A stretch of 4,201 nucleotides of DNA from a virus (lineage: Duplodnaviria; Heunggongvirae; Uroviricota; Caudoviricetes), in the IMG/VR virus record IMGVR_UViG_2648501150_000013, positions 1 through 4,201 of that record; one strand, given 5' to 3'. Positions 1-4,201 of this stretch are shown here, one piece after another. Below the pieces are notes generated by a model that saw only the letters and a list, made by a program, of their open reading frames with translations, was not told where the DNA came from and did not search any database. Both the position numbers and the translations under genes were made by a program. Numbering within the stretch: the first letter of the stretch is position 1; each line of letters starts with the position of its first letter.

Positions 1-560
1 TGGTTCCCAGCCTCATAGGCTACCCGCAACCAGTGCATGAATGTTTCCGCAGACACACAGCCGCAGTCCACATCGATTTCCCCGCGTTGCTGCTCCAGCC
101 ATTGCTCAAAATCTAACTTGTAAGCCTTACTTTCAGGTTCATCACCATTGAACTCGACTTTCTGCGACGCTATGAGAGCGGCTTCGTACTGTTCGCGAGT
201 GACAACCGATGTAAACGCACTGCGATCAAGGTCACTGATATCGCAAATAATGCCATCAATGGAATAATTCTTTGATGATTGGTAATTTTTATGGTGCGTA
301 CCAAAAAGAACCATAGCGCGACTACTACCTGGCATCGTAATGGATAGATGGCAAAAATCTTTTCCATCAGGCCATCCACGCCCCTTAGATAATTCCTTCA
401 CTAACAAGTCAATCAGTGTCATAGCGTTACCATCCTTGCAAGGCGCTAAAGCTATTTTGGCAAGCTCCAATACTTCATCTGCTGCGTATCCAGCACTGTG
501 ACCATACATTTCGATGCTGGTGATAATCTCTGATATGCGTTTTTTAGTGATTCTTGTCAT
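1..560 (-). CDS. Hypothetical prophage protein, partial (start codon at 560; C-terminus lies beyond the left window edge). Its C-proximal part is paralogous to the central module of the 1649..2161 gene.
   Basis: Manual translation of the minus strand from ATG at 560..558 gives an open frame with no stop to position 1 (MTRITKKRISEIITSIEMYGHSAGYAADEVLELAKIALAP...KLDFEQWLEQQRGEIDVDCGCVSAETFMHWLRVAYEAGN...). The ATG overlaps the TGA of the upstream gene (ATGA). It is missed by the ORF track because it has no stop inside the window. Confidence 0.7.
   Translation of the reverse strand, partial: MTRITKKRISEIITSIEMYGHSAGYAADEVLELAKIALAPCKDGNAMTLIDLLVKELSKGRGWPDGKDFCHLSITMPGSSRAMVLFGTHHKNYQSSKNYSIDGIICDISDLDRSAFTSVVTREQYEAALIASQKVEFNGDEPESKAYKLDFEQWLEQQRGEIDVDCGCVSAETFMHWLRVAYEAGN
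7..124. repeat. Diverged direct repeat, copy 1 (partner at 1878..1995).
   Basis: Ungapped alignment at a constant offset of 1871 nt. I counted about 80% identity over the 95 nt at 30..124. Both copies encode the FEQWLEQQ-x-G-x-IDVDCGCVS module of two different genes. Confidence 0.7.
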
Positions 561-766
561 AGTTTTATTTCCTTGCATGGTTCGCCTTTACGGCAAACAG
601 CTACACGGTCATTTCTTACATTAACCACGGTCACCGTTCCGTCATCGCATTGAATAACGATGAAAGGGTGTTCATTCTCTTTTGTGCAATGTTGCTGTTC
701 CCCTGCTATAACAGTGAGGGGAATTAATAAAATAATAATTACTGCGAATTTACTAAATGTTGCCAT
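557..766 (-). CDS. Small cysteine-containing protein (69 aa) with a predicted N-terminal signal peptide or membrane anchor; function unknown.
   Basis: ORF track. The N-terminus MATFSKFAVIIILLIPLTVIAG has a short charged n-region and a roughly 15-residue hydrophobic core; the remaining ~47 residues contain 4 Cys. The TGA stop overlaps the ATG of the next gene. The upstream SD is weak (AGAAAG). Confidence 0.6.
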   Translation of the reverse strand: MATFSKFAVIIILLIPLTVIAGEQQHCTKENEHPFIVIQCDDGTVTVVNVRNDRVAVCRKGEPCKEIKL

Positions 767-790
767 AGCAATCTTTCTTTCTGTTTTTCA

Positions 791-1084
791 TTATGGTTGA
801 ATCCAGTTATCTTCAATAGCAATGCTCAATCTTTGTAACCATTCTGCTAATTTCAGCATTGCTTCTCTTTCGCTTAAACCACGAGGAAAATCATCAAGCG
901 ATATTGTTGGCTTGAAGTTTCCCAAATTATCCATTTCAACGGTCAGATTTTGCTCCAGCACGGTATTCCTTACGCGGCTATTGTGCCGAAGCAAATATAC
1001 TGAACGTGATTTATTGGTTTTGTGGTCGAGCTGATATTCGGTAAGTATCATCTGGCTTCCGCCATGATTATTACCGCGCCACAT
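791..1084 (-). CDS. Hypothetical protein, 97 aa.
   Basis: ORF track. GGAG lies 5 nt upstream of the ATG at 1084. An alternative internal start at Met12 (MILTEYQ...) cannot be excluded. No family recognised. Confidence 0.6.
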   Translation of the reverse strand: MWRGNNHGGSQMILTEYQLDHKTNKSRSVYLLRHNSRVRNTVLEQNLTVEMDNLGNFKPTISLDDFPRGLSEREAMLKLAEWLQRLSIAIEDNWIQP

Positions 1085-1107
1085 AATTACTCCGTGTTAA
1101 TTGAAAT

Positions 1108-1389
1108 TTAGCTATTAATCTTCACTTTTATCGCGAACACCTTTACCGGTTTATCACCGAAGTGCGGATGTGTGATTGTCTTGATTTCATATCCGTCATA
1201 CGGAACATCAATTCTGCGGCTGGAATCGTCGCGCTTCGGATATCCCTTTGTGATAATCAGGCGGTCATACTTACGGTTAACGAGGCGCTTATTCCAGTAG
1301 TCATTACACAGGCGATACTCTTCCGTTTTATCTCCGCGAATCATGGCATCGAAGTATTCACCTTTGACGGCAAGTTGCAGGTTAGCCAT
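1108..1389 (-). CDS. ASCH-like (PUA-fold) small protein, 93 aa; start trimmed relative to the ORF track.
   Basis: A strong SD (GGAGGTGA) precedes the ATG at 1389..1387, so the start is set at MANLQLAVKGEYFDAMIRGDKTEEYR. The G-x-K-T-x-E-x-R motif near the N-terminus matches the ASCH-domain signature as I recall it (for example E. coli YqfB). The ATG overlaps the upstream TAA (TAATG). Confidence 0.6.
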   Translation of the reverse strand: MANLQLAVKGEYFDAMIRGDKTEEYRLCNDYWNKRLVNRKYDRLIITKGYPKRDDSSRRIDVPYDGYEIKTITHPHFGDKPVKVFAIKVKINS

Positions 1390-1649
1390 TACCTCACCTC
1401 CAGTCTCCATACCGCCTGACCAATCCGGCTGGCATGGGTATCTTTGGATACTGTTCCGTCTTTAGCCAGCTCCATAAGAATTTTGCGCAAATCTGCCGAG
1501 CGCCATTCTTCATCAGGAAATTCCTTCTCCATTGCCAACCGCAGATTCCAGGTTGCTATCGTGAATGGATATTCACCGCCGAGAGCTTTCTCTTGTAGGG
1601 CAGCACGGGAACGCATCACCTGCAAAACCTTCTCTTTTACATCCATCAT
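1389..1649 (-). CDS. Hypothetical protein, 86 aa; start trimmed relative to the ORF track.
   Basis: AAGGAGG lies 4 nt upstream of the ATG at 1649..1647 (MMDVKEKVLQ...). The ATG overlaps the TAA of the upstream DUF551-like gene (TAATG). The 24 codons upstream in the ORF track lie inside the preceding gene. Confidence 0.6.
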   Translation of the reverse strand: MMDVKEKVLQVMRSRAALQEKALGGEYPFTIATWNLRLAMEKEFPDEEWRSADLRKILMELAKDGTVSKDTHASRIGQAVWRLEVR

Positions 1650-2161
1650 TACGCCTCCTTCGGCGGTTCTGGTAGCGGCATCCAGTGTGACGGTTTCCAC
1701 GACGCACCAGGAATTATCCACCCATCATTAGCGTCAGGATGCCCGGGGATGTAAGTAGCCCATTTCATTCGCCAGTCACCTTTCCTGTCAAACTCCACGG
1801 CAACAAGAACGGCTGTTTTGGTATTCGGCATTCGCTCACTACAGCTTATCCAACCATCCGGAATTACCGGAGAGTTGCCAGCCTCATACGCCACACGCAT
1901 CCAGTGCAGAAGCATTTCAGTGCTCACACAGCCGCAATCAACATCAATTTTGCCGTGCTGCTGTTCCAGCCATTGCTCAAAAGTTAACTTGTAAGTTTGG
2001 CTTACAGGTTCTGCACTATCAGCTTCGCGCCGCTTCTGTAGCTCTGCTGCCATCGCTCTCACGACTTCAACTGGTGCCCTTGCAGCAAACTCTATGTTGG
2101 TGATCAGCTCATTAAGATATTGCTCGCCTGGATACTGTTTCTTATCGGTTATAGTGGTCAT
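1649..2161 (-). CDS. DUF551-like phage protein, 170 aa; start trimmed relative to the ORF track.
   Basis: AAGGAGAG lies 4 nt upstream of the ATG at 2161..2159 (MTTITDKKQYPGEQ...). The C-terminus (...GWIIPGASWKPSHWMPLPEPPKEA) resembles the conserved end of DUF551 prophage proteins as recalled; this needs an HMM check. The central module (FEQWLEQQHGKIDVDCGCVS...VAYEAGN) is shared with the partial gene at 1..560. Confidence 0.7.
   Translation of the reverse strand: MTTITDKKQYPGEQYLNELITNIEFAARAPVEVVRAMAAELQKRREADSAEPVSQTYKLTFEQWLEQQHGKIDVDCGCVSTEMLLHWMRVAYEAGNSPVIPDGWISCSERMPNTKTAVLVAVEFDRKGDWRMKWATYIPGHPDANDGWIIPGASWKPSHWMPLPEPPKEA
1878..1995. repeat. Diverged direct repeat, copy 2 (partner at 7..124).
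   Basis: See copy 1; lies inside the DUF551-like gene. Confidence 0.7.
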
Positions 2162-2210
2162 ATCACTCTCCTTTTCCCTGAAGCATAGCGGCACGGCAGG
2201 CATTCCACCC
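2159..2210. repeat. Direct repeat of about 52 nt, copy 1 (partner at 2812..2863), spanning a gene junction.
   Basis: catatcactctcc...gaagcatagcggc(a/g)cggcagg is near-identical in both copies, with compensating 1-nt indels. It covers the start codon of the downstream gene, the SD, the stop, and the last ~15 codons (GWNACRAAMLxGKGE) of paralogs A and B. Confidence 0.75.
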
Positions 2211-2540
2211 CTTCACATAACCGAACGCCATCAACTGATCACTCATGGCGGGCAGCATTGTGTGGGTCGTACTGATTTCTTCCGGCACTACCGGCGCTGG
2301 CGGGGCGATGCGTCCAAGCAACTTATTTACCTCTTTCGCCATCGCGTCATATTTATCTAAATGGCGATTAGCTTCTAAGCAGACTCGGCGCATCTGATCT
2401 GAGTTAACTCGTTTAACTGGATCTGCTTCCAGCGATGCCAGCGCAATCCGTGCCAGTTCCATTTGTTCACCACGGGTAAGCCCGTTTTCAAGCGGATTTT
2501 TAATGAACAATTCAATACGTTCTTTGGTAATAGTGGTCAT
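2163..2540 (-). CDS. Hypothetical phage protein, 125 aa (paralog A; possibly Ead/Ea22-like).
   Basis: ORF track. TAAGGAGT lies 5 nt upstream of the ATG at 2540. It shares three motif patches with the 2816..3229 gene (IALASLEA, PAPVVP, GWNACRAAMLxGKGE at the C-terminus). The Ea22-like label is from memory and is not verified. Confidence 0.7.
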   Translation of the reverse strand: MTTITKERIELFIKNPLENGLTRGEQMELARIALASLEADPVKRVNSDQMRRVCLEANRHLDKYDAMAKEVNKLLGRIAPPAPVVPEEISTTHTMLPAMSDQLMAFGYVKGWNACRAAMLQGKGE

Positions 2541-2550
2541 GTGTTACTCC

Positions 2551-2814
2551 TTAACCCGCAGTGCTTTCAACTGATGAGGGGAACAAAATCTTTTCATCAA
2601 ACCCTGCATTCATATCATGGACAGCAACACACCAATCCATTGACGAACGATTATCAAGAGCCTCCATGATTTCATCCATGCGGCGCAGGTCATACAGGTA
2701 AATGCTTTTATCGCCAATGGTGTAAAAACCAATTTTTTTCGGTGATGGGCAGCGATCAAGAACGTCCTGTAATTCGTTCAACCATGCCCGTTCTTTTTTT
2801 GTTAAAGTTGCCAT
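2551..2814 (-). CDS. Hypothetical protein, 87 aa; start trimmed relative to the ORF track.
   Basis: AAGGAGAG lies 4 nt upstream of the ATG at 2814..2812 (MATLTKKERAWLNELQDVL...). The ORF-track N-terminal extension would run through the C-terminus of the upstream gene. No family recognised. Confidence 0.6.
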   Translation of the reverse strand: MATLTKKERAWLNELQDVLDRCPSPKKIGFYTIGDKSIYLYDLRRMDEIMEALDNRSSMDWCVAVHDMNAGFDEKILFPSSVESTAG

Positions 2815-2863
2815 ATCACTCTCCTTTCCCATGAAGCATAGCGGCGCGGCAGGCGTTCCAGCC
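2812..2863. repeat. Direct repeat of about 52 nt, copy 2 (partner at 2159..2210).
   Basis: See copy 1. Confidence 0.75.
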
Positions 2864-3229
2864 TGTAGCGTATGCAGCCGCTTTGCTGCTGCCTTCAACT
2901 GGCGCATCCTGCCAATACATTTCATCCGGCACTACCGGCGCTGGCAAGGCAGCGTGATAGTAGAGTGGCATAGTTTTGTACAGTGGTTCGCCAGGACTTC
3001 CGTCAACCTGATTCCATTCTTCAACCCAGGCATCAACAACCGCTTTGCTGGTTGATACATGTTCTTCTGAATCTACATTTTGTCCTGATATACAGAACAT
3101 AACTGCCTCTGCTTCCAGCGATGCCAGAGCAATTTCATAAGCACGGCGCTCAATATTGTCTCGAACGTCCAAGCTGCCTATGCGCTCTTTGATTTCTTTA
3201 ATCAGTTCTTTGTCGGTAAAAGTGGTCAT
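2816..3229 (-). CDS. Hypothetical phage protein, 137 aa (paralog B; possibly Ead/Ea22-like); start trimmed relative to the ORF track.
   Basis: AAGGAGA lies 5 nt upstream of the ATG at 3229..3227 (MTTFTDKELIKEI...). The C-terminus ...ATGWNACRAAMLHGKGE and the internal IALASLEAE and PAPVVPDE patches match paralog A. Confidence 0.7.
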   Translation of the reverse strand: MTTFTDKELIKEIKERIGSLDVRDNIERRAYEIALASLEAEAVMFCISGQNVDSEEHVSTSKAVVDAWVEEWNQVDGSPGEPLYKTMPLYYHAALPAPVVPDEMYWQDAPVEGSSKAAAYATGWNACRAAMLHGKGE

Positions 3230-3230
3230 A

Positions 3231-3590
3231 TCAATCTCCTTTGGTACCAATGTTTACAGCCTGGCAAGCCTCTTTGAGCACCCAGTCAACAGCGTCTTTC
3301 CATGCTCCGGTTTCGACTGGCGGATTCTCACGCTTTACCTGTTCATAGAAACGCACTGCTTTAATCAATCCTTCTGGTGTCAGTGGCACAGGCGGGACAG
3401 TGAATAAGGCCTGAATCTCATAGCTCGGCCTGTCGTTGCAATCCTCTTTTGTCGGGACATATTTCCAGTCACCAACCCACTGCTTCCCCTGAAAGTCTGT
3501 AACGCCTTTTTTCACGTAGCGATATCGCCATGCCACTGGTTTTGCCTGCCCTGCCTTTTCATGCCCTTCCTGATAATTAATCTCGCTCAT
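3231..3590 (-). CDS. Hypothetical protein, 119 aa.
   Basis: ORF track. The ATG at 3590..3588 overlaps the TGA of the upstream small ORF (ATGA). The SD is weak. The protein ends ...GTKGD, immediately followed by the conserved junction and the next ATG. Confidence 0.6.
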   Translation of the reverse strand: MSEINYQEGHEKAGQAKPVAWRYRYVKKGVTDFQGKQWVGDWKYVPTKEDCNDRPSYEIQALFTVPPVPLTPEGLIKAVRFYEQVKRENPPVETGAWKDAVDWVLKEACQAVNIGTKGD

Positions 3591-3763
3591 TCATCGCCCC
3601 ACTCATCACAATATGCTTCGACCGGTGTTTTCCCTGCTTCATAATCATCACGCCATGCTTCAGCATCAGCGGCACTTCCACCGCGTAACTCTGCATAATC
3701 CATTAACAGTTCATGCCATTCTTCAAAACTGGCGTTATATTTAGTTGAACCAAAATCAGCCAT
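3587..3763 (-). CDS. Small acidic protein, 58 aa, not in the ORF track (below its length cutoff).
   Basis: Manual translation from ATG 3763..3761 to TGA 3589..3587 gives MADFGSTKYNASFEEWHELLMDYAELRGGSAADAEAWRDDYEAGKTPVEAYCDEWGDE, with 16 D/E against 4 K/R. GAGGAAG lies about 9 nt upstream. It fills the otherwise empty gap between two coupled genes, and its stop overlaps the next ATG. Confidence 0.5.
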   Translation of the reverse strand: MADFGSTKYNASFEEWHELLMDYAELRGGSAADAEAWRDDYEAGKTPVEAYCDEWGDE

Positions 3764-3938
3764 TTTGTTCTTCCTCTTCGTCTTTTATTTCGTGGTATGA
3801 GTAATTGCAGTAGTTAAAGAAAATATCTTTAGCTTCATCCTGTATTTCATCTGGTGTTGCATCATCATCCACTTCGAATTCATCCTCGAAATCTCCACCG
3901 GCTATTCCCGTTTCAATAATTATTTTGAATTTTCGCAT
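3756..3938 (-). CDS. Small highly acidic protein, 60 aa.
   Basis: ORF track. MRKFKIIIETGIAGGDFEDEFEVDDDATPDEIQDEAKDIFFNYCNYSYHEIKDEEEEQNG has 20 D/E against 5 K/R. There is no alternative in-frame start upstream, where an in-frame TAA lies. No canonical SD is close to the ATG, and a hairpin sits just upstream. Confidence 0.5.
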   Translation of the reverse strand: MRKFKIIIETGIAGGDFEDEFEVDDDATPDEIQDEAKDIFFNYCNYSYHEIKDEEEEQNG

Positions 3939-4028
3939 TTCACTACCGCCCTTTCGGACGGCCTCCTGATGTTCTGAGGGTGCAGGAATCCCTCCGGTTA
4001 AGGATTAAATTTTTAACAGAGCTAAATT
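3939..4028 (-). promoter_or_regulatory. Intergenic leader upstream of the acidic gene pair: an AT-rich stretch plus a stem-loop with a GNRA-type loop in the minus-strand transcript.
   Basis: This is the only intergenic gap longer than 25 nt in the window. Minus-strand RNA CCGUCC-GAAA-GGGCGG (plus coordinates 3944..3959) forms a 6-bp stem with one G-U wobble, which on the plus strand would be a C-A mismatch. A second 5-bp stem, GAGGG/CCCTC, lies at 3975..3993. An AT-rich segment spans about 4000..4028. Confidence 0.3.
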
Positions 4029-4201
4029 TAATTATTCAGTTCTGGATTTTGTCGCCCTGCGTATCCGCGCTTTCGCGTTACGCTCAATCTGAATTAGCTT
4101 TTCTATATTTTTTCGCCTTTCCCGCTCCTCCTGACGCAAGAGCCTTACATCATCTGCCAGTCTGGTTTCTCTTTTCGCCACAGAGAGCATCCAGTCAAAT
4201 G
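4029..4201 (-). CDS. Possible small basic protein, partial or about 53 aa, Lys/Arg/Glu-rich and coiled-coil-like.
   Basis: The minus-strand frame is open from the right window edge to TAA at 4031..4029 (...MLSVAKRETRLADDVRLLRQEERERRKNIEKLIQIERNAKARIRRATKSRTE). A candidate ATG sits at 4190..4188, but the true start may lie outside the window. The composition is low-complexity, so this could be chance. Confidence 0.3.

Follow-up and report, generated by a model that had tools for sequence, protein, structure and literature searches.

In the gp5.9-gp6 and gam-bet-exo arrangements, a small acidic inhibitor of RecBCD (T7 gp5.9 or lambda Gam) is encoded next to a phage exonuclease. Another small T7 protein, Gp2, acts on RNA polymerase and has a beta1-beta2-alpha1-beta3 fold. 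Ocr (T7 gp0.3), ArdA and other anti-restriction proteins that mimic DNA form a further group of small, very acidic proteins, whose genes are carried by phages and conjugative plasmids and whose acidic residues lie in stripes along helices. DNA mimics account for 11 of 268 catalogued anti-defence proteins (EVADES preprint), so the prior for DNA mimicry in a given candidate is modest. On the leading side of a plasmid's oriT, approximately the first 30 ORFs are enriched for anti-defence genes, which are co-oriented and lie among ssb/psiB/ardA-type genes (Samuel et al. 2024, PMC11541004).

The window analysed here is a stretch of 4,201 nucleotides of a Caudoviricetes virus (IMG/VR record IMGVR_UViG_2648501150_000013, positions 1 to 4,201). 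It contains two adjacent genes for strongly acidic small proteins, referred to below as A and B, which an earlier sequence-only reading had proposed as candidate DNA-mimic anti-defence factors. The features of the pair and its immediate surroundings, in window coordinates, are the following.

3756-3938, minus strand: gene A, 60 aa, a DUF7167 protein with a net charge of -15 (from the ORF and its composition)
3587-3763, minus strand: gene B, 58 aa, a phrog_519 protein with a net charge of -12 (from the ORF and its composition)
3756-3763, minus strand: 8-nt overlap of the A stop and the B start, ATGGCTGA, read from the sequence; translational coupling
3770-3776, minus strand: GAGGAAG, Shine-Dalgarno-like sequence of B, within the codons of the acidic tail of A
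3587-3590, minus strand: 4-nt overlap of the B stop and the C start, ATGA
3231-3590, minus strand: gene C, 119 aa, phrog_660, next after B, net charge 0
3962-3967, minus strand: AGGAGG, upstream of A and directly 5' of the hairpin
3946-3961, minus strand: hairpin CCGTCC-GAAA-GGGCGG, 6 GC-rich base pairs with a GAAA loop, from the centroid fold

The composition first described for the two proteins was exact. A has 20 D/E against 5 K/R among 60 aa (33% D/E, pI about 4.05), and B has 16 against 4 among 58 aa (28% D/E, pI about 4.05), with 3 Trp, 4 Tyr and 2 Phe. The accompanying statement that neither sequence could be recognised no longer holds for either protein. A matches Pfam DUF7167 (PF23768) with 54.5 bits against a cut-off of 24.4 (E 1.2e-14), its residues 2-53 aligning to model positions 1-60 of 60; it also matches phrog_1997 (E 2.7e-30), and its gene bears the RefSeq label 'DUF7167 family protein'. 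By these sequence matches, A is to be classed as an ordinary, standard DUF7167 member. Relatives with the length, motif and acidic tail of A occur in Escherichia, Klebsiella, Citrobacter, Serratia, Yersinia and Pseudomonas genomes, and likewise in Enterococcus phages; a fusion of A to another domain was never seen among the homologues. An AlphaFold2 model built with family alignments (pLDDT 78) predicts beta1 at residues 2-10, beta2 at 15-23, alpha1 at 29-40 and beta3 at 45-51, followed by the C-terminal acidic tail DEEEE. Residues I8, E9, T10, A27, T28, I32, A36, F40 and C44 are invariant in the family. One glutamate per strand (E9, E22 and E50) stays acidic wherever a sequence has a residue at that position; D24-26, E31, E35, D38 and the tail at 53-57 are likewise conserved as acidic.

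B falls within phrog_519 (E 8.5e-23, 82.3 bits), its residues 1-58 aligning to profile positions 76-137 of 143, and has no family in Pfam or NCBIfam. An exhaustive HMMER search of 1.84 billion representatives yielded about 80 clusters at 50% identity, nearly all of them stand-alone proteins of 48-75 aa; B has the same stand-alone build of 50-65 aa as these clusters. Longer relatives were considered as a source of informative domain fusions, but nothing informative could be recognised in them: P0145 is a gene call that reads through from DUF1187 into B, P0186 has a weak DUF3331 match and P0201 has no Pfam match. The family shares the motif F-E-E-W...L...A...G-x-S..D..A-W-R-x-D-Y-x-x-G-x-T-P-x-x-A-W-x-x-E-W-G, in which W37 is invariant and W16, Y41 and G44 are near-invariant, and ten positions (14, 15, 33, 35, 39, 40, 42, 49, 53 and 57) are D/E in at least 70% of sequences. 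The corresponding AlphaFold2 model is a three-helix bundle (helices 13-27, 34-42 and 47-55; pLDDT 88). On this model, the conserved carboxylates would form i/i+4 stripes on each of the three predicted helices (14/15/18/22, 35/39/42 and 49/53/57), opposite the aromatic core residues W16, L20, Y23, W37, Y41, Y/W51 and W55. The model's fold matches are AAA+ lid, UBA/CUE and ACP-like bundles. Kinship of B with a solved structure was rejected, as PDB profile searches with shallow and deep alignments returned only noise, the best match being pRN1 ORF56 (E 0.044 over 20 residues). The literature found on phrog_519 offers a single statement on function, a machine-learning prediction by AcrHub/PaCRISPR of an anti-CRISPR in Kuttervirus genomes (PMC9409062); one other literature match proved to be a string artefact. 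For DUF7167, DUF1187, the protein accessions and the sequence strings, the literature searches found no functional study, and neither DUF7167 nor DUF1187 is named by any paper of the library searched.

Neither in sequence nor in fold does A or B resemble Ocr, ArdA, Gam, Gp2 or a solved anti-CRISPR to a significant degree; for the Ocr/ArdA/KlcA-type families, neither the profiles nor the solved structures gave a match. The PDB was searched by sequence and by profile, with both shallow and deep alignments, and gave negative results, and Foldseek against viral models retrieved only uncharacterised proteins at E 0.048 or worse. With respect to anti-CRISPR loci, neither an adjacent Aca helix-turn-helix regulator nor homology to a known Acr was found for A or B, and PADLOC and NCBIfam scans of the ten complete window genes downstream of A yielded nothing useful. 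Both proteins have the high negative charge and the pI of about 3-5 typical of DNA mimics, and like Ocr and ArdA they are small, very acidic (28-33% D/E) and phage-carried, with acidic residues in stripes along helices and, for B, an additional presence on conjugative plasmids. They differ from Ocr and ArdA in having about half the monomer size and in not occupying the very first-expressed position of the element.

The acidity itself goes beyond chance: when 146 annotated genes from eight related neighbourhoods are ranked by acidity, members of the A and B families fill 10 of the top 12 ranks. Net charge per residue ranges from -0.13 to -0.25 in these members, against a small-gene mean of -0.02 (sd 0.10), and in 42 diverse aligned B-family sequences the median net charge is -10, with a pI below 5 in 41. 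Acidity is a selected feature that is conserved across both families. A and B are folded proteins with position-specific acidic conservation and a cassette-like spread over phages and, for B, plasmids.

The reading put forward here, tentatively and with a greater chance of being wrong than right, is that A and B act as stoichiometric acidic decoy inhibitors. Each would be a small, autonomously folded, extremely acidic protein whose acidic surface would occupy the basic nucleic-acid-binding surface of a protein of the host or of a rival element. This would take place soon after activation of the element, during phage early transcription or plasmid establishment. The likeliest targets would be DNA-directed defence or repair machinery, such as type I R-M/BREX-like enzymes and RecBCD-type nucleases, with nucleoid or transcription proteins as the next class. 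Specific DNA mimicry with an anti-defence outcome, a narrower form of the same proposal, is unlikely.

A rather doubtful alternative is that the two proteins modulate host takeover or establishment apart from immunity. They would bind a housekeeping nucleic-acid-binding protein, such as RNA polymerase in the manner of T7 Gp2, a nucleoid protein of the H-NS/StpA type or a replication or SOS protein, and would thereby favour expression or replication of the incoming element. Topology, together with a pattern seen by eye, prompted consideration of A as a Gp2 homologue. The candidate was rejected: hhalign of A against the real T7 Gp2 sequence gives a probability of 0.4%, and Pfam RNA_pol_inhib (PF16857), which scores 97.5 bits with T7 Gp2, does not match A. 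Neither protein shows specific similarity to any H-NS, RNA polymerase or replication modulator. Moreover, A and B are missing from many related phages, which fits a dispensable accessory function and not core takeover.

A and B had been described as the first two genes at the head of an operon, a placement that the analysis does not support. All long ORFs of the window lie on the minus strand in a tightly packed chain that continues past C, and a co-directional ORF (4032-4190 and beyond), which leaves the window at its end, lies upstream of A across a gap of 93 nt. On the coding strand this gap contains no sigma-70-like promoter and no terminator-like site; upstream of A there is no Rfam match and no recognised RNA element, and the fold z-score is -0.64. 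The possibility that A heads an operon through its own promoter, terminator or known RNA element was therefore dropped. Rac/Qin-type prophages have the order cro, cII/YdaT, O-like, DUF977, DUF4406, Ea22-like, hypothetical, A, B, C, followed beyond C by Ea22-like ... hokD, DUF968, RusA and Q. In annotated relatives, the pair is internal to this rightward cro-O-...-RusA-Q operon, a long delayed-early transcript. The co-directional ORF upstream, the promoterless gap and the internal position in annotated relatives together argue that A-B is not an operon head. In Stx phage ArgO145, the same pair lies in the leftward ea/exo-xis accessory region.

The hairpin upstream of A ends 7 nt before the ATG of that gene, and AGGAGG lies 23 nt from the start in linear distance, which would shorten to about 7 nt if the hairpin forms; the two elements are possibly a split Shine-Dalgarno sequence that is pulled into range by folding. 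The AGGAGG-hairpin block is conserved in seven E. coli-type loci, the window included, and moves with gene A; it is kept in ArgO145 despite an unrelated upstream flank. Among the seven loci, the block differs only by a C to T substitution compatible with wobble pairing and by GTCA in place of GAAA in the loop. Relatives in other lineages have ordinary, canonical Shine-Dalgarno sequences.

The arrangement of the two genes suggests a further possibility, namely that A and B constitute a two-protein unit, either a heterodimer or an inhibitor with its partner, whose coupling is functionally required. The 8-nt overlap, which had been correctly called, and the location of the Shine-Dalgarno sequence of B inside the tail codons of A are in line with such a unit. 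So are the presence of the intact pair in 1750 E. coli genomes, out of 1931 with any match and 5426 complete ones (about a third of the latter), and its joint shift between the accessory regions on the pR and pL sides. Electrostatically, however, two proteins of such strong acidity are unlikely partners, and in most other lineages each gene occurs without the other: A alone in Klebsiella and Enterococcus phages and a Pseudomonas genome, B alone in Enterobacter, Salmonella P2-like prophages, Ackermannviridae and plasmids. On plasmids, the gene upstream of B is a different one, DUF1187, yet the coupling overlap of 8 nt is the same. These independent distributions weaken the case for an obligate pair, and a functional two-protein unit is quite improbable. 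A and B are better described as two unrelated, independently mobile accessory genes that form a coupled pair in E. coli lambdoid prophages.

The contexts of A without B are varied and include Klebsiella temperate phages and a Pseudomonas aeruginosa genome contig. A also occurs in a P22-like pL region with the order Arf, Erf, SSB, x, Dam, A, theta-like, x, Xis, Int. Klebsiella Guernseyvirinae have the A homologue overlapping the beginning of an exonuclease gene, upstream of a gp2.5-like annealing protein, a placement reminiscent of gp5.9-gp6 and gam-bet-exo. A also follows a gene annotated 'exonuclease' in Enterococcus Herelleviridae; since Pfam assigns that gene to DUF3850/ASCH, the GenBank label beside the Enterococcus DUF7167 gene is, on this sequence match, probably wrong. 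The genes so labelled lie at 3513-4013 in loci L006 and L027 and at 3291-4013 in L028, and an ASCH-like gene is also present in the window at 1108-1410, about 2.3 kb downstream of A. Lambdoid contexts have no exonuclease association, and A has no sequence similarity to gp5.9 or Gam. The idea that A is a gp5.9/Gam-like RecBCD inhibitor was rejected because the association fails outside Klebsiella Guernseyvirinae; for those phages it is kept as a minor lead.

B is found in 219 phage records, including the virulent Ackermannviridae (Cba120 orf183, Det7 and Klebsiella Magnus), where it lies downstream of the major capsid gene within a block of small ORFs. Enterobacter lambdoids carry B without A, either in the order Ead/Ea22, B, x, Xis, Int or between O/P and NinE/NinG. 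In P2-like prophages, including those of Salmonella, B is again without A and directly follows replication gene A, beside a variable hotspot. Together with a 62-78 aa ORF, B forms the conserved left border of this hotspot, after gpA and before the portal gene (L021 3868-5085; L007-L010 4354-5348). The cargo of the hotspot includes, in one Salmonella locus, an nSTAND1/AAA_16 NTPase and, in other loci, a Terminase_6N-like protein of 227 aa.

B further occurs on 561 plasmids, 516 of which are predicted to be conjugative. About 420 carry a copy at 80-90% identity and are mostly IncI2 plasmids of approximately 60 kb; more distant relatives reside on large MOBH Klebsiella plasmids. The mcr-1 IncI2 plasmid pHZ001 has the order repA, CaiF/GrlA-type regulator, DUF1187, B, SPFH, NfeD and T4SS genes. 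In the interval L033 8793-9177 lies its copy of B, which is 86% identical and overlaps DUF1187 by the same 8 nt as B overlaps A. With oriT placed by inference between mobC and the next ORF, this B is approximately the 26th ORF on the leading side, past repA; ssb, psiB and ardA are not listed for pHZ001 in the PLSDB gene table, which is itself incomplete. Assignment of IncI2 B to the classical leading region is thus marginal at best, at the edge of the window of about 30 ORFs. In a stronger version of the decoy-inhibitor proposal, B would be a broad-spectrum, DNA-mimic-type decoy against DNA-targeting defence or repair enzymes, common to lambdoid and P2-like prophages, the virulent Ackermannviridae employed in phage therapy, IncI2 (mcr-1) plasmids and large Klebsiella conjugative plasmids, and A would represent a second, independent family of inhibitors. 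This version is improbable.

A very doubtful explanation is that the acidity serves a partner from the same element, with A or B as an acidic chaperone, an antitoxin-like protein or another neutralising partner of a basic protein, for instance the product of a neighbour or a phage protein that binds DNA. Against this, neither A nor B has a conserved neighbouring gene across lineages, and the product of the immediate downstream gene, C, is neutral.

Repeated gene-boundary sequences of the window (2137-2210, 2526-2557, 2790-2863 and 3205-3278; minus strand ...GGAAAGGAGAGTGATATGAC/GC...) link Ea22-like C-termini, which end in ...GKGE and a stop, to the gene that follows. In Enterobacter prophages, this junction also stands ahead of B, and these repeats look like recombination linkers of a mosaic accessory region. 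A direct repeat of 146 nt with 77% identity is present at 3-148 and 1874-2019; at its left end, the window carries the middle portion of the DUF551-type gene G a second time, so that paralogous modules lie within 2 kb of each other. At the end of the block, in a stretch of lower GC content (0.37-0.40), an ORF at 557-766 on the minus strand encodes 69 aa with a hydrophobic, signal-like N-terminal segment and four Cys, and is possibly a small secreted or lipoprotein moron.

A and B are real coding genes under strong purifying selection. Pairwise Nei-Gojobori estimates from unsaturated E. coli comparisons give dN/dS values of 0.02-0.04 for A and 0.06-0.2 for B, and where dS is saturated, dN is just 0.1-0.3; for gene A, values of 0.02-0.11 were also obtained. 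The exact A and B proteins (UniProt B7LEQ9_ECO55 and D3GYH2_ECO44, respectively) are each present on at least 1000 contigs, under no names other than 'hypothetical', 'phage protein', 'DUF7167' or similar. Frameshifted or truncated copies of A are common in assemblies, as expected for dispensable prophage cargo. In many database copies, the C-terminal half switches into an overlapping alternative frame (...KIFSLTTAITHTTK; window 3785-3898, minus strand), as in variants P0048, P0050, P0057, P0059 and P0068, with P0059 alone present on 107 contigs; these variants probably reflect recurrent decay. The view that the ORFs are non-functional, having arisen by chance or being remnants in decay within a mosaic prophage region, draws on these broken A variants, on the pseudogene copies in locus L014 and on literature searches in which no experimental expression data for A or B were found, but it is effectively refuted by the purifying selection, the HMMER homologues of B and the homologues of A. 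Against it also stand homologues that conserve the motifs in distant phage families and on plasmids, confident fold predictions for both proteins and canonical Shine-Dalgarno sequences in other lineages.

Both proteins are already catalogued (DUF7167 and phrog_519), and should they prove to be inhibitors, each would add a new family to a known kind. A specialist will find nothing surprising in small acidic ORFs of lambdoid accessory regions; the more notable result is the spread of B over phages and conjugative plasmids with its conserved acidic stripes, and its spread to conjugative plasmids is absent from the literature found. If either protein is an anti-defence factor or an inhibitor of a host protein, the consequences would be broad, as about one in three complete E. 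coli genomes contains the pair. An inhibitory B would reach more than 500 plasmids, mostly conjugative and including the IncI2 plasmids that spread mcr-1 colistin resistance, as well as Kuttervirus and Taipeivirus phages considered for therapy. As a domain of 58 aa that phages and plasmids have in common, it would then point to a shared barrier facing all incoming DNA and could serve as a compact tool protein, while inhibitors of the A family would span phages of Gram-negative and Gram-positive hosts. If they are not inhibitors, A and B are among the commonest uncharacterised small proteins of enterobacterial mobile elements. The reach of B and its acidic stripes make it a good and cheap candidate for screening against a panel of defence systems.
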